A DNA stretch of 34,545 nucleotides from the IMG/VR virus record IMGVR_UViG_3300028586_000054, positions 1-34,545 of that record, one strand, 5' to 3'. Below the pieces are notes generated by a model, which did no database searches, had not been told where the DNA came from, and was given only the letters and a program-made list of their open reading frames with translations. Made by a program: the position numbers and the translations under genes. Shown here one piece after another: positions 2,532 through 23,538 of the stretch (positions are counted from its first letter, which is position 1; each line of letters starts with the position of its first letter). The DNA comes from a virus. Taxonomy: Duplodnaviria; Caudoviricetes.

Positions 2532-3773
2532 TTATGCCGCCGCTGCGCCTTTGCCGACCAGCGCTTTAATGGCTGCGCCATCTTCGAGCACGCAGTCAAA
2601 ACGATGGAATGCCAGGAAACCAACCTGATCAAATTCGGCATAACGCTCAGTGAGGCGGCGCAACGTCATGTAAGCGACACGGCGGAGAACAAACCGATCA
2701 AAATCACCACACAGCACGAATTTATTACCCGCGTCAGCATCGGCAATAGCCTGATCGATAACGTATTGCGTCCCCAGCACGGAAGCGGGAGCGACGCCGA
2801 CAATATCAGGCAACCACAGCGGGCGACCCTGGTTGTCTTTCATTTTGCTGATCGCTAACAGGGTGTTGTCATTGAACGCAAAACGGAATCGCGGGGAATT
2901 ACGATAGGCGGGGTCGACGCTGTGTTTAAGGTCAAGCATTTCCGACCAGGTAAACGCCTTAGCCGCTGCGGCGGTTGTTGTTTTAGTAATCCAATCATTC
3001 AGCCCCTTAACTGACACAGAGGCATCTTTATTTTTTGCTCCCTGCACAATCGCTTTTGCCTCACCCCGACCCAAACGGGAGGCAATACGGGCGGCGAGAT
3101 AGCCATTCATATCAATCCCGCTATCCTGTAAAAGCTCGCTGGATACGCGGATGATTTTCGACGTCATTTTTTTAGCGCCCAGCGTGATCGGCTTAAATTC
3201 TGTGTCCTCTTCGCCCGCTGCAGTATTTTCACCGATCATTTCCCCGATTTCCTCGGTGCTGTCGGTATAAATCCACTCCAGCGGCTGACCGTTAGACGTG
3301 TTAAGGAGCTGACACACGCTGGCGACCCCGCCGTAGGCTTTCATTGCCTCAACAACACGATTACGGAACTGTGTCGGCACGGTATAGCCCCCGGCATTGC
3401 CTTCTGTCGTACCCTGTGCGCGGAGTTCCTTCAGGATTGAGCGCTCCTCTGCACTCAGATCACCCGCACCGGAGCGTACAAAGCGATCAAAGACAGATGC
3501 GCGGCGCTCCTCCTCGTTTGTCGGATGGCTGGAATCGCTATTGTCGCGGCCCTCGGGCGAACAGGCCTTAGCGAGTTCATCATCCTGACGACGGAGATCC
3601 TCCTCACGTTTGATCTGCTCATCGAGCAAATTATATTGGTGTTGCGCCTCATCCCACTGGCTCCGCTGCTCATCAGTCCAGACAGCATCACCAATTTTGT
3701 CATGGAGGGTGCGCATCTCTGCGGCGATGGTGGCGCGTTTTTGCTGCATTTCATGCAATTTTTTATTGCTCAT
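2532..3773 (-). CDS. Major capsid protein (HK97 fold, N-terminal coiled-coil delta domain)
   Basis: GGYTVP, VSSELLQDS, GRPLW, GDF and ERYAEFDQVGF motifs. Likely start is the ATG at 3773 (MSNKK). Confidence 0.95.
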   Translation of the reverse strand: MSNKKLHEMQQKRATIAAEMRTLHDKIGDAVWTDEQRSQWDEAQHQYNLLDEQIKREEDLRRQDDELAKACSPEGRDNSDSSHPTNEEERRASVFDRFVRSGAGDLSAEERSILKELRAQGTTEGNAGGYTVPTQFRNRVVEAMKAYGGVASVCQLLNTSNGQPLEWIYTDSTEEIGEMIGENTAAGEEDTEFKPITLGAKKMTSKIIRVSSELLQDSGIDMNGYLAARIASRLGRGEAKAIVQGAKNKDASVSVKGLNDWITKTTTAAAAKAFTWSEMLDLKHSVDPAYRNSPRFRFAFNDNTLLAISKMKDNQGRPLWLPDIVGVAPASVLGTQYVIDQAIADADAGNKFVLCGDFDRFVLRRVAYMTLRRLTERYAEFDQVGFLAFHRFDCVLEDGAAIKALVGKGAAAA

Positions 3774-3799
3774 ACGGGAAATCACCTTTTTGCGGACAT

Positions 3800-3824
3800 A
3801 AAAAAACCCCGCCGAGGCGAGGTT
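3800..3824 (-). terminator. Intrinsic terminator between the protease and capsid genes
   Basis: Minus strand reads AACCTCGCC-TC-GGCGGGGTTTTTTT. Confidence 0.6.
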
Positions 3825-3829
3825 ATTAC

Positions 3830-3856
3830 TTAAATAATTAAATATTTATTTATTAA
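3830..3856. repeat. Dispersed AT-only motif, locus 1 (core AAATATTTATTTA)
   Basis: TTAAATAATTAAATATTTATTTA is identical over 23 bp to the copy at 21659. Confidence 0.75.
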
Positions 3857-4468
3857 TCAGGAACGGTCTAACAGTGTCAGAATGCGGGCGCGTTTCTCGC
3901 GCTGGATAATGGCGTCTAACTCTGGCTGTTTTTGTGCATCCCGCTGGCTCCGCCATGCCTCCATAGAGCGGACCGCGCTGTCGGCCTCTGTATAGGCCGG
4001 ATAGGTCACAGGGGACACATCATAGAGACGGGAGAACCGCGTAATTTCGCGAACAATGACCCCCTCATCGTCCTGATACCAGCGCTCACCGTCGCGGGCT
4101 ACGCGGAACGCAAACGAGCTTTGTGAAATGTCCCCACGGCGCATAGGTGACAGAACGAGATCGGTGATAGTCGGGGTCGTCGGCGCGAGAATTTCATAGC
4201 GTAGCCCCCTGTCATCGACAGAGAGCGACAGCGTTTTGGAGCGTGTACGCCCTAAAATATAATTAGGGTCGTGATTGAACAGGCCGCGAACGTCATCGTT
4301 TAATACTCCGTCAAATGCACCCGGTTTAATGATCTCGCGGAAACAGCCGCAAATCAGCTCGGAACGGCTATCAAAAACGGACGCATAGCCGATAATTTTT
4401 ACCGGCTGACCCTCCGTTTCATCCGTGCGAACCTCACCCATAAAACAGCGTTTTTCTACATCACTCAT
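3857..4468 (-). CDS. Prohead maturation protease (HK97 family)
   Basis: GYASVF, LFNHD, SSFAF and DVSPVTYPAY motifs. Start moved to the ATG at 4468 (MSDVEKR). Confidence 0.93.
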   Translation of the reverse strand: MSDVEKRCFMGEVRTDETEGQPVKIIGYASVFDSRSELICGCFREIIKPGAFDGVLNDDVRGLFNHDPNYILGRTRSKTLSLSVDDRGLRYEILAPTTPTITDLVLSPMRRGDISQSSFAFRVARDGERWYQDDEGVIVREITRFSRLYDVSPVTYPAYTEADSAVRSMEAWRSQRDAQKQPELDAIIQREKRARILTLLDRS

Positions 4469-4478
4469 AGTGAAAACC

Positions 4479-5696
4479 TTATTTATCGTCGTCGTCTTTA
4501 ATCGGTTTCGACGCATTAACAGAAACGAGCATTTCATCCAGCCCGTTGACCGGATTTAAATCCTCAAATGCGCGAGCCTCGTTGCGGCTCATCCATCCGT
4601 CTGTAATCGCATAGTGGTAGAACTGCGCCCGTTCTTTAGGCGTGCCACGTAGCAGACCGGCCAAATTGAATTTGACGTAATAGCCTGCGGCCATTTCCAT
4701 ACGGGTAAATAAACGGCGGTTTAATTCCTGCTCCCAATTCACTACCCACGGCATGATCGTGAATCGAACGAACTGGATAGACTGCTCCGAAATATTGGAG
4801 AACGTCGCCTTTTCCAGGTCATTGATCATGTGTGCCGGAACGTTAAAAATCCCCGCAATCGTTGAACGGTTGAGTTTCATCATCTCAACGAGCTGGGAAT
4901 CGACCGGTGACACAGTCAGCGCTTTATAATCCAGGTCAGCAGGTAACAGGAGCGTCTTATTTTCCTGTGAACGGAGCGCGGCGGCGGCTTGCTGCCACAC
5001 TTTTTTTAAGCGTTTCCAGCTATCGTCGTTAAGCGTCTGCTTAACAGAAACGATCCCAGCCGGTCGGGCGTTGCCGTTAAAAAACGATTCCGTGTACTTC
5101 TGCCCGGAGAGGCCGAGGCCGATTGTCTGCGCGTGCTGGAGAATGGGAGACAATCCCCATTTGTCATTATTGCCAATGGCTTTAACGTGGATCATATCGT
5201 CAGGATGAACGCTCCAGGAGCCATCATCCGTATAAATCCCATAACGCCACCTGCCACTAAATTTAGTGAGGTTTGTTTCCCATGGCATCCTGTGCGCCAG
5301 CTCCTGAACCTCGCCGCGCCGGTTGCGAATCACCTCCGTGTAACCGTTTCCCCAGCCTAAAACATGGCGCTGTTTTAGCTCCCGCCATTTGTAGGAGGTT
5401 TCCCACGGATTCGGCTCATTATGTATCAGGTAATAAACAGGATGATCGGTCGCCTGATTAACCGTGTCGCCTTGTTTTCGCAGAACGTGTAACGGCATCT
5501 GCGCCACGTTCGACGAAATCACGTTAATGCATGAATAAACCGACGCCAGTTTCATTGAGGTTTCAGGCGAAACGAAAACATCGCGAAAAACGTTATTATC
5601 GTTATCCACATTCGCGCCTGTCAGCGGCGTAGCGGGGTTTTCAATATTGCCCGGCCCGTCGTTTGTATCAGACCGGAAAAACGCATCCAGCAGCAT
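4479..5696 (-). CDS. Portal protein (HK97 family)
   Basis: GLSPI, FFNGNARPAG, IAGIFNVP, SNISEQ and NEARAFEDL motifs. Confidence 0.95.
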   Translation of the reverse strand: MLLDAFFRSDTNDGPGNIENPATPLTGANVDNDNNVFRDVFVSPETSMKLASVYSCINVISSNVAQMPLHVLRKQGDTVNQATDHPVYYLIHNEPNPWETSYKWRELKQRHVLGWGNGYTEVIRNRRGEVQELAHRMPWETNLTKFSGRWRYGIYTDDGSWSVHPDDMIHVKAIGNNDKWGLSPILQHAQTIGLGLSGQKYTESFFNGNARPAGIVSVKQTLNDDSWKRLKKVWQQAAAALRSQENKTLLLPADLDYKALTVSPVDSQLVEMMKLNRSTIAGIFNVPAHMINDLEKATFSNISEQSIQFVRFTIMPWVVNWEQELNRRLFTRMEMAAGYYVKFNLAGLLRGTPKERAQFYHYAITDGWMSRNEARAFEDLNPVNGLDEMLVSVNASKPIKDDDDK

Positions 5697-5845
5697 TAGC
5701 GCCCCCTGTTACGGGCAATGGCGAGGCCGGTCAGCAGCAGCCCGCCACCGGCAACGGCCAGCGCCGGAGCGAGGCCGAAACGGAGATAGGTTGCAGCGAT
5801 GATCAGGCTAAATCCTGCCACGCCTAATAGGTCGTGTAATCTCAT
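5696..5845 (-). CDS. Small two-helix membrane protein between terminase and portal (49 aa, not in ORF track)
   Basis: MRLHDLLGVAGFSLIIAATYLRFGLAPALAVAGGGLLLTGLAIARNRGR; overlaps both neighbours; a usual position in HK97/SfV-like heads. Confidence 0.75.
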   Translation of the reverse strand: MRLHDLLGVAGFSLIIAATYLRFGLAPALAVAGGGLLLTGLAIARNRGR

Positions 5846-7572
5846 AGGGTTAATAATTCCTCGTCATCGTCGAGATTAGAAAGGAAGTCGCGAGGCTCAT
5901 TCAGTATTGCGCGACCAACACCCATCATCAGGCCGACAGCGCCGTCGATTTTGTTCTCGCTGCCCTCTTTAGTAGGCCGGACAACATCATCGGAACCGGC
6001 GTAATATTTCCCGACGACGTTTTGCATATTCCAGGTGAGGATCGGATTGCCGTCATGATGGAAACGCCCAGCCGCGAGCGCCGCCTCTATCTCGCGCATC
6101 GGATCGGACATATTGGTAAAATTCTGCGTGATTGTGACCGGACACAGCCCCTCATCATCGAGCATGTGAGAGAGCGACGTCGCCCCGTAGGGGTCAATGG
6201 GACAGGTTTCAATTTTCACTGTCTCGCGTAGTTTCACGATGGTTTCAAAAATGACCCTGTAATCGACCTCAGCGCCATCTGTAGGCGTCAGCACGCCCTG
6301 ATTGACGAACGACTGATACCGCTCAGCAGTGCGGCGGAGTTCGGGATCAGTGCTGTAAACCGTATCCTCCGGCACCCAAAACATCGGAGACACACAATAA
6401 AAATGTTTGAGGCCATCAATCTCCCTCATGAACACAGGGATCACGGCGTTGAGGTCCAGTTTTGAGGCCAGGTCGATCCCGAGGTAACACGACTCGCCCG
6501 CAAAATCCGCGAGGGTGAGCGTCGGGTCGGCTGCGTCCTGCCATTTCTGGAGATTGTAGTAAGCCGTTTTACTGGCAACCCACAGATTAAAATGCTTGGT
6601 AAGGATTTTATTTGTCTGTGACGGCGTTGATTGCGCTAACTCCTGTTTAGCCTGCAAAAACTCCGGCCTGATCGAGATACCGTAATTCGGATTTGCCTTG
6701 CGGAGTGCATCCTCGGTCGTCCAATCGTCGCCCTTATCCAGAGTATAAATAATGCCAAAAATTGACTCATTAGCGCCTCCCTTGCGGATGCGCTCCAGAA
6801 TCTCAACCACCTGCGATCGTTTGTCGTAACACGGCGAGGCTATGTCGTAACCTGCCGTTGTAATAATCAGCGTTAACGGCTGCTCGCGCGCGCCCTGCCC
6901 GGTTGTCATGGTTGTATAGAGCGCGTCGGATAGGTGCTCGTGATACTCATCAATGATCGCGCATGATGGTGAGTCGCCGTCTCCAGGGTCGCCGATGATC
7001 GGCGCGAAAACAGAGCCATCAGGCCGGGTCAGTCGTTTCGCCCAGGGCTTGATCATGAACTTCTGACGGAGAGCCGCGAGCTTTACGCACATTTGCCGCG
7101 CCGGTTCGAAAACCTTAAACGCCTGTTTCTCTGTCGTTGCGCCCGCGTAGACTTCCGCGCCGTGCTCGCCGTCAGCACAGAACATGTAAATCCCGACCGA
7201 TGCGGCGATCAGCGATTTGCCATTTTTGCGGGGAACCTCGATATAAATCTCGCGGAATCGGCGTAGGCCCGTTTTTTTGTGAACCCAGCCGAACGAAACG
7301 CTAAAACAAAATTTCTGCCAATCCTCCAGGGTCAGCCGGAGATTTTTCCGCGCCCACTCACCAGTAGTGTGAGGCATTTTTTGCGCGAACCGGCAAAAAC
7401 GATCCGCTTTCGCCTTGTCAAAACGGTAGGGCCAGGTCATGTCCTTCTCTCGCTTCAGGTCATCAATATGGCGCTGACACGCTAATTTAACGTAACGACA
7501 GGCGATAATTTTCCCGGCGACGACGTCTCTCGCATAGCGGTTAGCGTCGTTCACATTTGGATAGCTCGCCAT
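5842..7572 (-). CDS. terL: Terminase large subunit
   Basis: Walker A VPRKNGKS, Walker B IIDEYH, ITTAG, nuclease GIDLAS and KIDGAV. Confidence 0.96.
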   Translation of the reverse strand: MASYPNVNDANRYARDVVAGKIIACRYVKLACQRHIDDLKREKDMTWPYRFDKAKADRFCRFAQKMPHTTGEWARKNLRLTLEDWQKFCFSVSFGWVHKKTGLRRFREIYIEVPRKNGKSLIAASVGIYMFCADGEHGAEVYAGATTEKQAFKVFEPARQMCVKLAALRQKFMIKPWAKRLTRPDGSVFAPIIGDPGDGDSPSCAIIDEYHEHLSDALYTTMTTGQGAREQPLTLIITTAGYDIASPCYDKRSQVVEILERIRKGGANESIFGIIYTLDKGDDWTTEDALRKANPNYGISIRPEFLQAKQELAQSTPSQTNKILTKHFNLWVASKTAYYNLQKWQDAADPTLTLADFAGESCYLGIDLASKLDLNAVIPVFMREIDGLKHFYCVSPMFWVPEDTVYSTDPELRRTAERYQSFVNQGVLTPTDGAEVDYRVIFETIVKLRETVKIETCPIDPYGATSLSHMLDDEGLCPVTITQNFTNMSDPMREIEAALAAGRFHHDGNPILTWNMQNVVGKYYAGSDDVVRPTKEGSENKIDGAVGLMMGVGRAILNEPRDFLSNLDDDEELLTL

Positions 7573-7575
7573 AGG

Positions 7576-8010
7576 CTAAAACCCGTCGAATTCGTTCGGC
7601 TCCTCGCCGCCTTTCCCGCCTCCGCCCCCCGTCATGCGGGCGCGACTCATCGGGTCGAGACCCAGCAGGGAACCAAAGCGGGCGAGCTGCGCCATCGCAC
7701 CACTACGGACAGTTACAGCCGGATGAACTTTTAGCCCGCCAGTGCCGCCGACGTCGGTTAAGCCTTTTTCCGCAATTACCTGATCAGCATCGCAGACCGT
7801 CTGAAACGCCATGCAATACATCATCAGGGGGAGAGCATCCTCCGGCTCAAATATCTCGCGCTCGATCAGAATTTTGGACGCTGATTTCCAGCAGGCGACC
7901 GCCATATCTCCCCGTAATTCCTTTGGCGGCGCGATCCGGGTGATATTACTCCGGCGAGGTGCGAGCTGATTTTTTTTGCGGCCACCTCCCGCCGCTCTCA
8001 CTCCTGCCAT
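7576..8010 (-). CDS. terS: Terminase small subunit (P27 family)
   Basis: KVHPAV and LGLDPMSRAR motifs; directly upstream of terL. Confidence 0.9.
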   Translation of the reverse strand: MAGVRAAGGGRKKNQLAPRRSNITRIAPPKELRGDMAVACWKSASKILIEREIFEPEDALPLMMYCMAFQTVCDADQVIAEKGLTDVGGTGGLKVHPAVTVRSGAMAQLARFGSLLGLDPMSRARMTGGGGGKGGEEPNEFDGF

Positions 8011-8059
8011 GATCAATCCTGTTAAATTCGTGTTAAAAACCCTGAAAAAACAGATTTCT

Positions 8060-8135
8060 TATTTCGGGCGCGTAAAAATTTAGGGGGGCGGGCAGTCAGG
8101 AAGGGGTTAGGCCACAGAGATTTGATCCCCCCCCC
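8060..8135 (-). other. Probable cos packaging site
   Basis: Minus strand GGGGGGGGGATCAAATCTCTG...CTGCCCGCCCCCCTAAATTTTTACGCG upstream of terS resembles cos regions of HNH-associated cos phages. The exact cut site cannot be determined. Confidence 0.55.
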
Positions 8136-8202
8136 TATTGATAACGATTACCATTTGCACTGGAGCTGATATTGATTTCATTTGATATAGTTAGCAATGA
8201 AA

Positions 8203-8433
8203 CTAATCAGCGTGCGAGTTGTTATCGCCTGCCCCTGTCGCCCCTATGACCGTCAGCCGTAGTCCCTCACGTAACGTATCGAGACCCACCTCCAGACCGA
8301 CGCGTGAGGCTGCGCGACGCGCCAACTCCTTCACGCCTGCCCGTGTCGTGGCGTTTCCCCAGCTCAGGAGGAACACATCGCCAGATCTCGCACCAGTGAG
8401 CGCCCTCGATACCTGCAATCCGTTTCGCCTCAT
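8203..8433 (-). CDS. Hypothetical protein
   Basis: SD AGGGGA before the ATG; co-oriented with the late operon. Confidence 0.5.
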   Translation of the reverse strand: MRRNGLQVSRALTGARSGDVFLLSWGNATTRAGVKELARRAASRVGLEVGLDTLREGLRLTVIGATGAGDNNSHAD

Positions 8434-8603
8434 TTCGATCCCCTAATAGCGAGAAATAGTAAACAGGGCTGTGCAGCTCGTGTAGAGCCAGACCATTAAC
8501 CCCGATTTAAATCCGGCACCATCAGACGGCAACGGATGGCCGAATAATCGAAATTACCGACCGCATCATCGCCAATCATTTTCATGTGTGTCTTACCATT
8601 CAG

Positions 8604-8813
8604 TTAACTGCCATCAGGCCGTAACCATGCGCGGCCTGTTGCATGTAGCAGCGGGCATGATTTAGCCGTGTGTCCTGATCGATGGCACCGGGTGCAATGT
8701 CGGGGAGCGATTGAGCCTCTCATCCCACTGTTAGCCCGGACAGCCGCCTCGCGTGATTCATAAGGACAGCGGCTGATTTTGTGGCGGCTGGAACCGCATC
8801 GAGAGCAACTCAC
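8604..8813 (-). CDS. Double CCHC zinc-knuckle protein 2
   Basis: CSRCGSSRHKISRC and CTRCHRSGHTAKSC both fit CX2CX4HX4C; GTG start with a GGAGG SD. Confidence 0.75.
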   Translation of the reverse strand: MSCSRCGSSRHKISRCPYESREAAVRANSGMRGSIAPRHCTRCHRSGHTAKSCPLLHATGRAWLRPDGS

Positions 8814-8824
8814 AACAATCCCTC

Positions 8825-9025
8825 CTAATCGAGATAAAAATCATCGTTGAGACTGCGACGGCGGCCAGCGCTGGCATTGTGCGGACAGGCGCTGGAGTTA
8901 TGTCCAGAGCCGCCGCAATAGCTGCAGCGTAGATTGACCCGACGCGATGACCCGCCCCATGTTTTAGGGCAGTTGGCACGCGTGTGAGTCGTCGCGCCGC
9001 AATAGGTGCAACGTGTGTAACTCAT
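8825..9025 (-). CDS. Double CCHC zinc-knuckle protein 1
   Basis: CTYCGATTHTRANC and CSYCGGSGHNSSAC both fit CX2CX4HX4C; ATGA overlap with the HNH stop. Confidence 0.82.
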   Translation of the reverse strand: MSYTRCTYCGATTHTRANCPKTWGGSSRRVNLRCSYCGGSGHNSSACPHNASAGRRRSLNDDFYLD

Positions 9026-9375
9026 GGAGAGAACCTCTCGCGGGCTGTTTTAGATTTGTGGTGATCGGTACAAATGCATTCGAGGTTGTCGAGGCTGTCT
9101 GTCCCGCCTCTGGCTTTCGCTATGATGTGATCGACACTGGAACCCGGTCGGATAACGCCTTCGCGCTTGCATGGTTGGCATAACCCCTTATCGCGCTTAA
9201 TCACGATATTACGGAGCCTGCGCCATGTTTCGCCGTAGCCGCGTTGCTCTGCCGTTCTGCCCCTGTTGTGTCTCTCCCACCCTGCGGATTTATGCTCGCT
9301 GCAGTAACCGTCACTGTCGGTTGTTGTGTGCCTGCACCCTCGCGAGCGACAGGCTTTAGGGATTCTGCGGGGCAT
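9022..9375 (-). CDS. Terminase-associated HNH endonuclease (HK97 gp74-like)
   Basis: RGYG..W, CQPC, VDHII, GGTD..NLECIC..HH..KT motifs; upstream of cos and terS. Confidence 0.92.
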   Translation of the reverse strand: MPRRIPKACRSRGCRHTTTDSDGYCSEHKSAGWERHNRGRTAEQRGYGETWRRLRNIVIKRDKGLCQPCKREGVIRPGSSVDHIIAKARGGTDSLDNLECICTDHHKSKTARERFSP

Positions 9376-9386
9376 TGCTCCCCCTG

Positions 9387-9854
9387 TTAGATTTGCCCCT
9401 GATACGCGGCATAAGTCCCGGAGCGCATCACCTCAGCATGACGGCGGGCGCGGTTAGGCGTCTGTCTCGCCCATAGGCTATTCAGCATGGCGCTGGCTGC
9501 CCCGGCAAAATCGCCGCGTGAAATGAGACTCAGCGTATTAACGAAACCGGCCAGACCGCCCACACCCATCTGATAAGCCATGCTGTAGAGGATGTCCCGC
9601 CGTGCGTCGTTGCACTGCGCCAGCGCGGCCACAATGACGGGATAGCGATTCATATCAGCGGTTTTCGCATCTACCAGGCATTTCTTCCATAGATCGCCAA
9701 CAGGACGGGGAACAGTAAATTGATACTGTTTGATTGGCGCGTTTTGAGGACCGATTCTGATACCACCGGCAACAGTTGGAAAATTGCGGGTGTCCCAATA
9801 GGGAGCCTCTTTGTAGCCCTCTTCAAAATTGAGGATCTCGATAATTTTACTCAT
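9387..9854 (-). CDS. Endolysin, T4-lysozyme-like (GH24)
   Basis: Intact E-x8-D-x5-T triad (EGYKEAPYWDTRNFPT) and C-terminal SLWARQTPNRA. Confidence 0.9.
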   Translation of the reverse strand: MSKIIEILNFEEGYKEAPYWDTRNFPTVAGGIRIGPQNAPIKQYQFTVPRPVGDLWKKCLVDAKTADMNRYPVIVAALAQCNDARRDILYSMAYQMGVGGLAGFVNTLSLISRGDFAGAASAMLNSLWARQTPNRARRHAEVMRSGTYAAYQGQI

Positions 9855-10146
9855 CGCTATTACTCCGTGTTGGGTTTGGAATCAGACGTGAAACGTTGCC
9901 TCGCGCCGCAAATACAGCGACACATATCAGCCCGTTCGCTACCACTAACGGCCAGCCGCTCGCGTGGTAATGGCCGAACAACCACAGCAAAAAAAAATTG
10001 CCGTAGAAAATAACCAGCCCAGCCGCCACCCATGACGCGCCGGATTTATATGTCCGCCCTTTCTTACTGAACGTCATGAGACGCAACGCAATAGCCGAAC
10101 AGATAGCAACATTAATCACTGTCAGGAGATCGGAACTAATGATCAT
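9847..10146 (-). CDS. Phage holin family protein (3 TM helices)
   Basis: Three hydrophobic stretches ending in ARGNV; adjacent to the endolysin. Confidence 0.8.
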   Translation of the reverse strand: MIISSDLLTVINVAICSAIALRLMTFSKKGRTYKSGASWVAAGLVIFYGNFFLLWLFGHYHASGWPLVVANGLICVAVFAARGNVSRLIPNPTRSNSDE

Positions 10147-10547
10147 GATTTATCCCCCAGCCATTTTTTAACGAACGGCAGTTTTAATAGCCCGCCGTTT
10201 TGAATCCAGAAATAACCCTGCACAGCAGCAGACGACACGACAATCGCCGCGAGCGCGTCCAGAGGTTTATCGTTGGCGATGCCATATTTAGCGGCGAAAT
10301 GCTCCATAACATCCGCTACGATTCCCGCGCCGAATATCCCCGCCGCATAACCGAAAATGAAATAACCAAACATCTGTAACCGCGTCAGATTAGTGGCTCT
10401 GACTATGAAAAATATCGAGCCTGCGAACGCGCCGAACGCAATCGAATAATCGACCGACGTTATAAATCCCACGATTGCAGACGCAACGATCCCCCAGCCC
10501 GCAACGGTTCCCGCCGTTGCTGCGCCGGTACTCAATGGCTCAGCCAT
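10143..10547 (-). CDS. Putative holin/antiholin
   Basis: MAEPLSTG and DYSIAFGAFAG motifs, several TM helices and a basic C-terminus. Confidence 0.78.
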   Translation of the reverse strand: MAEPLSTGAATAGTVAGWGIVASAIVGFITSVDYSIAFGAFAGSIFFIVRATNLTRLQMFGYFIFGYAAGIFGAGIVADVMEHFAAKYGIANDKPLDALAAIVVSSAAVQGYFWIQNGGLLKLPFVKKWLGDKS

Positions 10548-12215: not shown

Positions 12216-12238
12216 ACCCGCCGCCAGGCGGGTTTATT
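12214..12238. terminator. Bidirectional terminator between the moron and the spanin gene
   Basis: AAACCCGCC-GCCA-GGCGGGTTT. Confidence 0.6.
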
Positions 12239-12770
12239 CTTTTGGCTGCGTGCTGCGAGCCTCATCAGCAGCGCGGATATCCGCTAACTTGCGGTTTGCC
12301 GTGTCCAGGGCGTTTAGCAATGGCTCCAGCCATAACACCGCCTGCCGGTATGTCAGTTTGCAGGCGGTCCCGGAATAGGGATCGGCGCTGTCAGGCTCGC
12401 TGGGAGCGGCTGCGAGGGTGTCGGCACGTAAACGACGGTATTTTTCGCACAGCCCGTTAGCAACATGATCAGGAATGCGAGCATCAGTCGCGGGAACATT
12501 ACGGAGCACCTCTCGATATTCGATCACACGGTCAGCAGTGACGGCGTCACGCCTCAGCCGGTCGGCCTCGTTCGCTGCGGTGATCCGGTTAAACGTGTTG
12601 AACAGGAACGCGGAGCGGGAATTGATCGCCGTCTGTGCATCTCGCTCCCTGCGGAGCTGCGCCGCCTCCCTGTCGAGCTGACCGGCCCTGTCCCGTTCCT
12701 GCAGATAGGAGCACGTTGAGAGCGTCGTCGTTGCCAGTAGCAGCGACAGCACAGCGATCAGCCATTTCAT
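12234..12770 (-). CDS. Rz-like spanin
   Basis: N-terminal TM helix, coiled coil and C-terminal LTYRQAVLWLEPLL; follows an endolysin-like gene. Confidence 0.7.
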   Translation of the reverse strand: MKWLIAVLSLLLATTTLSTCSYLQERDRAGQLDREAAQLRRERDAQTAINSRSAFLFNTFNRITAANEADRLRRDAVTADRVIEYREVLRNVPATDARIPDHVANGLCEKYRRLRADTLAAAPSEPDSADPYSGTACKLTYRQAVLWLEPLLNALDTANRKLADIRAADEARSTQPKE

Positions 12771-13396
12771 TTAGGCAACTCCGCCCGCGCACGGCGAACC
12801 GCTAACCCGCGTCGCGTATCTTTCTCGTCATGCGGGTCGAGCTGGAGACGCTCGACGACTTCGATTGTCGCCTCGATACCGCTGCAACTGCGAGCCGTGA
12901 ACATTGCACAGGCAATGCGAACGGCGAGCCGGGGATCGGCTACTGAATCAGGAGCGGCCACAAAATCCACGCCGACCAGCTCTGACGCCTCTTTGTAAAC
13001 CTTCTTTCCCCGGATAGGCAGTACCCCGCGTGCGCGGTATGTGTAGCCCTCGCGAGCACCATTGCCCATGCGCCCACCATAGGCGAGATTGGCGATTGCT
13101 ATCTGGCGCTCTAATGGGATTTCTTTTTCCAGCATCTGAAACCCTAACATTGCTGCCTGATAGGGGGAGAAACGCGTCCCGAACTCACGACGGAGCGCCC
13201 CGGAACTGTAATTGAACGTCTCCGACAGTTTGCGGAAACGGTCAGTCTCAGACGACGACAGACCGATAATCATTGCTCTGTCGAGGCGGTCAGTTATCCC
13301 GAACTCCTCAAATGCCGAGACAAACAGCGGGAACCATGTATCCCCGTCAGCCGCCGAACAATTAGCAGCCCTCATAAAATCAATTTCATTCACCAC
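12767..13396 (-). CDS. GH19 (chitinase-like) endolysin, divergent
   Basis: ETDRFRKLSETFNYS, IANLAYGGRMGN and GYTYRARG motifs. Confidence 0.75.
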   Translation of the reverse strand: MVNEIDFMRAANCSAADGDTWFPLFVSAFEEFGITDRLDRAMIIGLSSSETDRFRKLSETFNYSSGALRREFGTRFSPYQAAMLGFQMLEKEIPLERQIAIANLAYGGRMGNGAREGYTYRARGVLPIRGKKVYKEASELVGVDFVAAPDSVADPRLAVRIACAMFTARSCSGIEATIEVVERLQLDPHDEKDTRRGLAVRRARAELPK

Positions 13397-18893: not shown

Positions 18894-19562
18894 ATGACAG
18901 CATCAATAGCGTTTCTCAGCCCTAAAGGCGGGGTAACTAAATCAACATTAGCGCGGGCAACCGCCGTGGCGTTTGCTGCCAGTGATTGGGCGGTTTTTGC
19001 CGCCGACCTGGAGTTAGGACAGGGTACGTTTAGGAAATGGATGAAACGCCGCACAGAGGCGGGGATCACGCCAGTTTTCCCGGTACGGGCGTTTGCATCA
19101 ATCGGCCAGGCAGCGGGCGAGATTAAATCCGGTGAATGGGATTTAGTTGTCCTAGACTGTCCCGCGTTCGCGTCAGTCACCACCGTAGAGATCGCCCAGC
19201 TCGTTGATTTGGTCGTCCTGCCGACCCGTTACTCTACAGACGATCTGGAGAGCACCGCCGAAACTGCAAACTCTCTCGTATTAGAGGGTGTTGATCCGAA
19301 AAAAATCGCGATTGTGTTTTCAGGCGTTGCCGAGGCAAGGGGAACTCACGAACGTGAGGCGGACCGCATCGAGGCGGGAGATTATTTCTCGGAGCTGCCC
19401 TATCATGTAATCCCCGGCTACATTCCTCATCAGAAAGCGTTGAGCACTGCACAGGATGGCGGACGCTCTATTATTGAGTGCCACTATTCAGGACCGCGAC
19501 GGAAAGCGGAGAATGTTATACAGGCCATTATTTCGCGCTTTGAACAAGTGACGGAGGAGTAA
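18894..19562 (+). CDS. parA: ParA partition ATPase (short, type Ib-like)
   Basis: Deviant Walker A KGGVTKST, ADLE.GQ, Walker B VVLDCP; no N-terminal HTH. Confidence 0.9.
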   Translation: MTASIAFLSPKGGVTKSTLARATAVAFAASDWAVFAADLELGQGTFRKWMKRRTEAGITPVFPVRAFASIGQAAGEIKSGEWDLVVLDCPAFASVTTVEIAQLVDLVVLPTRYSTDDLESTAETANSLVLEGVDPKKIAIVFSGVAEARGTHEREADRIEAGDYFSELPYHVIPGYIPHQKALSTAQDGGRSIIECHYSGPRRKAENVIQAIISRFEQVTEE

Positions 19563-20276: not shown

Positions 20277-20555
20277 TCAGAAATATATCGTTGCAGATTC
20301 AACCCCGCACGCCTTTGCGTAACGGGAGATTGTCTCGACGCTGGCTGTCGTGATGTTTTTTTCCATCCGGGACACGGTCGGAGGTTTAACGCCCATGCGG
20401 TCGGCAACCTGTGCGCTGGTCAGTCCAGCATGTTTCCGCCATTCCAGCAAGAGCGCCTGCAGACGCTCTTTTCGTTCTTCGGCTTCGTATACGGCGCGAT
20501 ATTCAGGATCGCGCATCATATCGTTATGGATCTCTTTATGTGTTTTGTATTTCAC
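20277..20555 (-). CDS. higA: HigA-like XRE antitoxin
   Basis: DPEYRAVYE and HTH LTSAQVADRMGVKPPTVSRME; downstream of the toxin. Confidence 0.82.
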   Translation of the reverse strand: MKYKTHKEIHNDMMRDPEYRAVYEAEERKERLQALLLEWRKHAGLTSAQVADRMGVKPPTVSRMEKNITTASVETISRYAKACGVESATIYF

Positions 20556-20865
20556 GTTTCATTTCCTCCAGTCGCTGCCAGGCTGTTTCAATCTCAGAGG
20601 GCGGGGTCTTAGGCGTCTTTTTAATGAAAATTCGCAACATGTAAATCTTTTGGCCCGCCTGATATACCCATAATCCCCGCGATATATCGCCCCCCATCGT
20701 CCTGACCTCGTACAACCCACCGCCCAGCGGTTTTGTGTGCGGCTCCCGTAACAGTCGGGGATCGGCCTCCAGTTTAGTGACTAACCTGTCGAACTTTACA
20801 CGGATGGCCACTGGCAAACTCTTTAACTCCGCTTCCGCTTCGTCGTGATAAATGACTTCAAACAA
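20536..20865 (-). CDS. higB: RelE/HigB-family toxin (Gp49-like)
   Basis: EPHTKPL..GLYEVR and FIKKTPKTP..EI..A motifs; toxin-first gene order. Confidence 0.85.
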   Translation of the reverse strand: MFEVIYHDEAEAELKSLPVAIRVKFDRLVTKLEADPRLLREPHTKPLGGGLYEVRTMGGDISRGLWVYQAGQKIYMLRIFIKKTPKTPPSEIETAWQRLEEMKREIQNT

Positions 20866-22701: not shown

Positions 22702-23538
22702 TTAGGTGACAGCGAGGCGGGTAGAGAGTTTGCGGGTCGTCATGCGTTGATTGGTAAGCCGCTCAATCTCTGATTTCATAGCGTGGTGAGTATCAAACGA
22801 CAGAATGCCGCGACGGATTTTGTCCATTATGGCCGCGTAAACCAGCCTGCGAACCTCTGCACGGGTGCGCTCCTGATCCTGTGCGCGTTGGTGACGAAGC
22901 TCGCCCGCGCGTTTTCTTCGGGTGTGTAGCGTGGTGAAGTGATCACGCCAGCTCTTAATTTTTTGCATCGCCAGATCGGCCAGTGACAGACGGGGGAGCT
23001 GCTTTTTCTCACGTTGCTGGTTTTCGTAGGCATAGCGGGCGCGACGTTCTGACTCCACGCGCTCTGGCTCAACATCAGCAATCATCCGCCAAAAACGATC
23101 AGTGAACGTAAACGCGACTGTTTCATAACATCCGAGGTCGTCCCGGTAGAGCGTTGGAAATCGAGAAATCAATCCTAACCGCTCCATTAACGCGAGGTGA
23201 CGGCGAACGCGCCCTATCGACATTTTGTTATTTTTCTCTGTCCCGAGGCCACAGCGTACAGCAATATTGTGAGCACTGGTAAACACGCGGTCGGCGACCA
23301 GGTCATAGTGGTAGAGGGCGGCTTGTGTGAGGCATTCCAGAACACGGACGCTGTTGTCAGAAGGGCGACGTTTAATCGTATCCTCACGGCGAGCCAGGGC
23401 GACAACCAGATCAAAGCCGTGCAGGCTGTACGCGCCAGCGGAGCTTTTCATCAGCCTGCCTATGAATGGCAAAGCCGGGGCGGACTTAGGTTTAAAGATC
23501 GGGTTAGGATTCCTAACCGCGTTAAGGGCAAAATTCAT
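22702..23538 (-). CDS. repA: IncFII-family replication initiator RepA
   Basis: VRNPNPIF, YHYDLVADRV, CGLGTE, SIGR, LGLI, GCY and ENQQR align by eye with R1/R100 RepA. Confidence 0.9.
   Translation of the reverse strand: MNFALNAVRNPNPIFKPKSAPALPFIGRLMKSSAGAYSLHGFDLVVALARREDTIKRRPSDNSVRVLECLTQAALYHYDLVADRVFTSAHNIAVRCGLGTEKNNKMSIGRVRRHLALMERLGLISRFPTLYRDDLGCYETVAFTFTDRFWRMIADVEPERVESERRARYAYENQQREKKQLPRLSLADLAMQKIKSWRDHFTTLHTRRKRAGELRHQRAQDQERTRAEVRRLVYAAIMDKIRRGILSFDTHHAMKSEIERLTNQRMTTRKLSTRLAVT

Follow-up and report, generated by a model that had tools for sequence, protein, structure and literature searches.

A family of small double zinc-knuckle proteins, related to phiKO2 Gp64, at the cos end of a probable phage-plasmid and in many other phage operons

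RESULTS AND DISCUSSION

Genome and locus

The window, as we call the whole stretch of viral DNA analyzed here (34,545 bp), is a complete virus record with direct terminal repeats. It encodes RepA, ParA, a CI-like repressor, HK97-type head genes, and a Mu/SfV-type contractile tail, and no integrase was found among the window ORFs scanned. We infer a circular phage-plasmid whose host is probably an enterobacterium, and it may belong with 37-kb relatives recovered from two other runs (X2 and X3) to an undescribed phage-plasmid group. A Gp49/HigB-like gene and an HTH gene form a pair on the minus strand (positions 20277 to 20865) that is likely a toxin-antitoxin module for plasmid maintenance. The genome also carries two lysis cassettes, one of two holins and a lysozyme (9387 to 10547) and one of a diverged endolysin (phrog_181) and spanins (12234 to 13396), which are separated by an MT-A70 methyltransferase.

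Reading along the minus strand, which encodes the genes considered here, one meets holins, lysozyme, HNH endonuclease, ORF1, ORF2, cos, terS, terL, and portal (Table 1). As the initial annotation of this DNA had it, the HNH stop codon overlaps the ORF1 start codon as ATGA. The ORF1 stop codon is in turn part of an AGGAGG sequence that lies 7 nt ahead of the ORF2 start, a junction that suggests translational coupling of the two genes. Both genes had also been placed just upstream of cos and terS; the order is as described, but ORF2 ends ~510 nt before cos. Among relatives, the distance from the end of ORF1 to terS is roughly 110 to 260 nt. The 76-aa ORF that lies in this interval of the window has no match in PHROG or PADLOC and in relatives is either diverged or carries compensating indels. 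Neither a promoter nor a terminator was found between HNH and cos. The palindrome ahead of cos is the best Fur-box match of the window (15/19 to the consensus). A match of at least 13/19 occurs in 105 of 152 related cos regions, a redundant set of loci, versus 1 of 152 shuffles. The element is general to this class of cos region, including loci without a knuckle gene, and it may respond to iron or serve as a terminase/IHF-type site.

Table 1. Features of the window discussed in the text
Feature	Position	Strand	Remarks
TerL	5842-7572		
TerS	7576-8016	-	
Predicted cos, 10 nt	8085-8094	-	P27/SfV type; aligned to the annotated phiP27 cos, 9/10 bases alike
Fur-box-like AT-rich palindrome	8140-8158	-	~46 nt before cos
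76-aa ORF between ORF2 and cos	8203-8433	-	Fair ribosome site
Insertion point	8535-8543	.	~1 kb of extra DNA in X2, X3, and X4, absent from the window
ORF2, 69 aa	8604-8813	-	GTG start; double CCHC knuckle
ORF1 stop TAG fused to AGGAGG ribosome-binding site of ORF2	8814-8827	-	
ORF1, 66 aa	8825-9025	-	ATG start; double CCHC knuckle
HNH endonuclease	9022-9375	-	Terminase associated, HK97 gp74-like; stop overlaps ORF1 start (ATGA)
ParA	18894-19562		
RepA	22702-23538		IncFII-like; 36% identity to the best plasmid match among those listed

Four exact zinc-knuckle motifs in two small ORFs

The observation that two adjacent small ORFs carry four exact CX2CX4HX4C motifs holds, with two motifs in each ORF (CTYC and CSYC in ORF1, CSRC and CTRC in ORF2). 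A six-frame scan of the whole window returned exactly these four. Since 200 base-shuffled windows contained on average 0.03 such motifs, with a maximum of 1 per window, we reject chance as their origin. The ligand spacing is exact in all four knuckles, but both proteins score below the cutoff of the Pfam zf-CCHC model (PF00098; 19.3 and 14 bits versus 20.8 bits). The score against PF16588 was 25.9 bits versus a threshold of 26.2 bits, and no model in Pfam, PHROG, NCBIfam, or PADLOC passed its cutoff on either protein. Net charge is +6 for ORF1 and +10 for ORF2.

ORF1 belongs to an uncharacterized family typified by phiKO2 Gp64

ORF1 is 86% identical to Gp64 of phage phiKO2 across all 66 residues. 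A word-indexed protein search gave 26 matches at 49 to 86% identity, and ORF1 scores 98.6 bits against a family profile built without it. Searching a profile against 1.84 billion representatives returned 452 matches at an E value of ≤0.001. Among the best 150 of these, the longer matches were generic multiknuckle proteins, and 110 newly returned cluster representatives of at most 110 aa were small family members. Two exact motifs were found in 92 of these 110, with a linker of 14 aa in 81 of the 92. The family is built of two 28-residue repeats, each a knuckle plus a predicted helix, with the pattern C-P-K-T-x-x-G-x-x-x-R. Across 102 aligned members, the metal ligands are invariant or nearly so, and this conservation suggests that each knuckle binds one zinc. 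The median net charge of the family is +5. Residues Thr22, Gly25, and Arg29 are near invariant, Trp23 is among the other conserved nonligand positions, and 77 of the 102 members end in Asp. ORF1 has the full signature of the family, with C-x-Y/F-C knuckles, T22, G25, R29, the 14-aa linker, and the terminal Asp.

An AlphaFold model of ORF1 made from the 102 sequences (pLDDT of 75, pTM of 0.53; an earlier model from 27 sequences had a pLDDT of 58) places a helix at residues 23 to 31 of the linker. The fixed linker length and this predicted helix would point to a compact unit. Foldseek returned no match at an E value of ≤0.001 in the PDB and viral libraries, and VIA-align returned none at a Z score of ≥2.

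The 80 nearest IMG/VR loci were retrieved with a pattern that already required two of the eight ligands, and in 79 of them neither motif is damaged. The median dN/dS was 0.066 (626 usable of 1,891 pairs from 62 alleles, which were chosen for having both motifs and give nonindependent pairs), and ORF1 is thus under strong purifying selection. It is 77 to 86% identical to relatives whose HNH and TerS proteins are 44 to 58% identical, and it was the sole part of positions 8000 to 9400 that was matched in the 30 plasmid records listed of 176. These observations suggest that ORF1 is either more constrained than its neighbors or moving independently of them.

The family is carried by the cultured phage phiKO2, by many Klebsiella phage-plasmids, and by enterobacterial prophages. 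Its gene is often missed by annotation; in Pseudomonas phage RSP, a member lies unannotated in the gap between RSP_0063 and RSP_0061 (L003, positions 4001 to 4190). The phiKO2 record annotates Gp64 by name, with no function, and UniProt labels some uncultured-phage proteins as CCHC-type. A literature search, from which the original phiKO2 paper and supplements were absent, found no paper on the family. We therefore regard the Gp64 family as an uncharacterized phage variant of the known CCHC motif. The conserved Cys and His, basic charge, strong purifying selection, and lack of a characterized function of the ORF1 family all support the initial annotation, as does late expression insofar as position indicates it.

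Gene order does not tie the family to the packaging machinery

The initial annotation proposed that the knuckle proteins could help the HNH endonuclease and terminase to melt or protect cos ends. Among close relatives, the position is favorable to this idea. In 71 of 75 close loci (those of the 80 with enough DNA), the knuckle gene is the last before cos, with terS or terL within 1.1 kb downstream. Overlap with the HNH gene is seen in 61 of the 80; in 17 the two genes are apart, and in 2 there is no HNH gene nearby. Likewise, Gp64 of phiKO2 (NC_005857.1, YP_006644.1) is the last gene before the right (cos) end, although ~1.5 kb of other genes lie between it and the HNH gene and there is no second knuckle gene. 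One of the three closest relatives of the window also has the two genes apart. Furthermore, Xu and Gupta (2013) describe small zinc proteins beside cos-linked HNH and terminase genes and put forward, as a hypothesis, that they serve as a specificity subunit (PMC3592412). These Group 4 zinc ribbons are a parallel to the Gp64 family in being small zinc-motif genes beside such modules; they differ in being listed as CxxC-type proteins of Firmicutes phages, whereas Gp64-family genes are mostly not beside HNH. A Listeria TerI system, considered as a further parallel, was set aside since it has no zinc protein.

The reverse comparison speaks against a packaging role. From the best 80 of at least 591 HNH relatives, the 77 loci with at least 600 nt downstream all had terL and none had a knuckle gene, a highly redundant set drawn largely from one SfV-like clade. 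Similarly, across 50,697 cultured-phage records, the family occurs in 10 (the same 10 from four queries) versus 267 for HNH. In HK97, cos cleavage has been reconstituted from TerL, TerS, and gp74 (PMC9410871). A query with TerS found no relatives in IMG/VR.

Distant members widen the picture. A DNA-pattern scan gave 89 loci, of which 63 remained after removal of 3 very close loci, 17 near-duplicates, and 6 short ones. Neighboring genes were taken with a simple ORF picker (193 picked; 150 scanned in Pfam and 83 in PHROGs, so that most were covered) and classed by hand. The HNH-knuckle-cos-terS order, which is mostly kept in close relatives, gives way here to more than 12 other slots, in genomes of 33 to 69% GC. 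Late structural, lysis, or packaging genes surround the knuckle gene in 35 of the 63 loci and probably do so in 4 more, while 8 are in early regions, 1 lies before Acb2/Tad1, and 15 are unclassified. Late slots include the interval between terL and portal in five Mu-like phages; those between tail tube and chaperone, chaperone and tape measure, and adaptor and head closure; positions after MuF, portal, baseplate hub, endolysin, or Rz1; and positions before scaffold or capsid. Early neighbors are integrase, exonuclease, helicase, rep, Gam, and resolvase genes. Late timing is hence not universal, with 8 of the 48 classifiable loci in early regions.

The members between terL and portal would suit a packaging cofactor; a presence in Mu-like and tail-gene contexts would not, and an HNH-type gene lies directly upstream in 3 of the 63 loci. 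The ATGA overlap, which might be taken as a sign of partnership with HNH, is likewise the usual fit of the family in any operon: among the 56 distant loci with a co-oriented upstream gene, the knuckle gene starts within 15 nt of it in 48 and overlaps it in 34, 17 of these by ATGA. Given this habit, we reject the overlap as evidence of partnership. Overall, the ORF1 family is not tied to the packaging machine by gene order; its patchy distribution and many insertion slots show it to be optional. We consider a role as packaging cofactor, in cos cutting, melting, or protection, improbable.

The same slots bear on a second possibility. Mu Com is a late translational regulator, and a Com-like ORF1 would tune the translation of the late gene that comes next by binding its leader. 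A small, basic zinc protein coupled just upstream of portal, tail chaperone, tape measure, head closure, or terS would fit such a role. However, no 6-mer stands out around the 63 loci as a shared flanking motif, and the downstream genes are mutually unrelated. In the window, the folding of the RNA that follows ORF2 does not surpass that of shuffled sequences (z score of 0.84), and this RNA has no Rfam match. We give this explanation little credence.

ORF2 is a rare, clade-restricted knuckle gene

ORF2 has Arg in place of Tyr in both knuckles (C-x-R-C), a linker of 23 aa, and none of the family residues T22, G25, and R29 or the terminal Asp. No homologue was found in cultured phages, plasmids, IMG/VR, GTDB genomes, or the protein library, among proteins of near length and longer ones. 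Of its metagenome matches, one was the window's own DNA and two were retrotransposon Gag knuckles, and a DNA pattern for a double knuckle with a 23-aa linker gave 28 loci without an ORF2 orthologue. The initial annotation suggested that ORF1 and ORF2 are diverged paralogues, which the comparison does not bear out. ORF2 scores 37.4 bits against the family profile, a score that 0 of 1,000 shuffles reach when Cys and His are fixed but 105 of 1,000 reach when the knuckle Gly and Pro are fixed as well. The ORF1-ORF2 DNA alignment score was reached by 136 of 300 codon shuffles, so there is no likeness at the DNA level, and the signature residues are absent. A language-model atlas ranked the ORF1 cluster first for ORF2 (0.88), which we take as a lead only. 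Paralogy is possible on these sequences, and ORF2 may have arisen by duplication and diverged fast or have arrived independently. The tandem pair is in any case not a conserved two-gene module, a reading that we reject since no second knuckle pair was found in 80 viral and 7 genome loci of ORF1.

The locus is covered by contigs from three other runs of three studies (X2, X3, and X4), which are 90 to 94% identical to the window; X1, which may be the source of the window itself, is left out of this count. ORF2 is covered whole in X4 at ~90% DNA identity and through both knuckles in X2, where the tail differs; in X3, it is matched only to codon 31, and the second half has either been exchanged or diverged beyond alignment. 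From two indels, the ORF2 start would read ATG rather than GTG in X3, with the stop-start junction kept. All three contigs carry an insert of ~1 kb between ORF2 and cos (Table 1), and between HNH and ORF1, X3 has 763 nt where the window has 89. The interval between HNH and cos is therefore an accessory slot in flux.

Could ORF2 alone be a decaying or nonfunctional duplicate? The lack of homologues in the databases searched, the lost signature residues, and the altered second half in X3 and tail in X2 would all agree with decay. Against this, all eight metal ligands are intact, the AGGAGG ribosome site is strong, and coverage of the gene is whole in X4 and extends through both knuckles in X2, with a start read as ATG in X3. 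We hold decay to be possible but somewhat unlikely. From the distribution of its matches, ORF2 appears to be a rare, clade-restricted knuckle gene found in the closest related phages only.

Comparison with known zinc-knuckle proteins

Two knuckles of exact CX2CX4HX4C spacing in a basic protein recall retroviral nucleocapsid (HIV-1 NCp7 and RSV NC) and Lin28, and RSV NC is a sequence match at an E value of 6e-5. The phage ORFs differ from these in standing alone, without Gag or a cold-shock domain. In HIV-1 NC, F16 and W37 stack on bases, and a flexible linker leaves the fingers independent (PMC6088434). These aromatics directly follow the first Cys (CFNC and CWKC), whereas in ORF1-family knuckles the aromatic is one position later: of 196 knuckles, 188 have it there and 2 have it at the first position. 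ORF2 has no aromatic at either position. The nucleocapsid-type guanine binding implied by the initial annotation is hence not supported. The same difference weighs on the idea that ORF1 works as retroviral nucleocapsid does, coating or condensing DNA as a minor component of the virion or as an ejected protein. Its small size and basic charge would fit such a protein, as would its usual location among structural genes (35 of 48 classifiable loci), but the family has no fixed slot, is optional, and lacks the nucleocapsid aromatic, and we judge this role very improbable.

Among solved structures, the best sequence match is to knuckles 2 to 4 of yeast Air2 (PDB 2lli and 3nyb; Pfam PF21759) at an E value of 3.6e-7. 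The likeness consists of CSYCG and CP-x-x-W motifs and of the lack of an aromatic right after the first Cys; the CP-x-T-W of the Gp64 family aligns to Air2 CPSIWR. Air2 is, however, a eukaryotic TRAMP subunit whose five knuckles are joined by flexible linkers, whereas the phage proteins are stand-alone, of 60 to 75 aa, with two repeats and a fixed 14-aa linker predicted to be helical. The resemblance may be convergent. The Air2 knuckles are described as using basic patches to bind RNA and as lacking the guanine pocket of nucleocapsid (PMC3384339). Taken together, the Air2 and nucleocapsid comparisons would support a knuckle binder of low specificity and not membership in the nucleocapsid family. 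E. coli YnfU, a "zinc knuckle" candidate for a relative, was rejected because it has a CPXC motif instead.

Air2 also suggests a different kind of ligand, since its IWRxY linker binds a protein, Trf4 (PMC3384339). The conserved residues Thr22, Trp23, Gly25, and Arg29 and the terminal Asp of the Gp64 family could equally form a protein-binding surface. ORF1 would then be an accessory that uses a Trp/Tyr/Arg surface and an acidic aromatic C-terminal tail to bind a conserved host protein late in infection, with a defense sensor, a protease adaptor, or a transcription or translation factor as candidate targets. The alignment of CP-x-T-W to the Trf4-binding segment, the invariance of nonligand residues, the frequent terminal Asp, and the lack of a fixed phage neighbor are consistent with this. 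However, the resemblance to Air2 covers a short stretch and may be one of motifs only, and residues kept in phages of such different GC content suit a generic ligand better than one host protein. We regard protein binding as an unlikely explanation.

Possible roles in late infection

At about even confidence, we propose that ORF1 is an optional late accessory protein, basic and stabilized by zinc, that binds single-stranded nucleic acid and benefits the phage in some hosts only, and that ORF2 is a second, clade-restricted knuckle gene. ORF1 would likely be translated by coupling from the late lysis-packaging message, a type of junction that is common in the family. Its two zinc knuckles and helices are predicted to fold as one small basic domain, which would bind RNA or DNA in single-stranded form and discriminate little among bases. 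The benefit would be host dependent and late, most likely the shielding of late transcripts or the blocking of host defense rather than cos cutting. ORF2 would occupy the same accessory slot, likely coupled to ORF1. The motifs, the selection on ORF1, its patchy distribution, the many insertion slots, and the coupling-type junctions are observed, whereas zinc binding, fold, nucleic-acid binding, late timing, and a counterdefense role are the inferred elements of this proposal. One observation counts against it: the position before cos is very stable in enterobacterial phages.

Late-RNA binding and defense shielding are now better readings of the family than the packaging link, and counterdefense is probably the likeliest purpose by association, although the association is weak. 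An Acb2/Tad1 gene lies within the same late interval in 19 of the 80 close loci, but this interval is a general accessory region, which weakens the association, and Acb2 directly adjoins the knuckle gene in one nonredundant locus only (three records). No PADLOC model matches the knuckle proteins. In L116, L137, and L159 (positions 3486 to 4481), the knuckle gene is directly followed by Acb2/Tad1 and then by a crAss001_48-related gene, a cluster of counterdefense-like appearance.

A more far-reaching version, which we offer speculatively and think unlikely as a whole, is that the Gp64 family is a widespread, unrecognized counterdefense factor, independently inserted in late operons by phages of many hosts, that masks late RNAs or soaks up a nucleotide alarm, with ORF2 as a second specificity born of an arms race. 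Its product would then appear at just the time when host sensors could be set off by the messages or proteins of terminase, portal, capsid, and tail.

For this locus, the packaging and nucleocapsid readings are weakened, and the tandem second gene is a local rarity. CCHC knuckles have been studied almost only in eukaryotes and their viruses. The Gp64 family is small, highly conserved, and tractable, has no Pfam, PHROG, or NCBIfam model, and its repeated insertion in late operons is a testable clue to phage-host conflict at a late stage of infection. If neither late-RNA protection nor a block of host defense were its role, it would be one more small accessory gene; if either is true, the Gp64 family would represent a new class of counterdefense protein.
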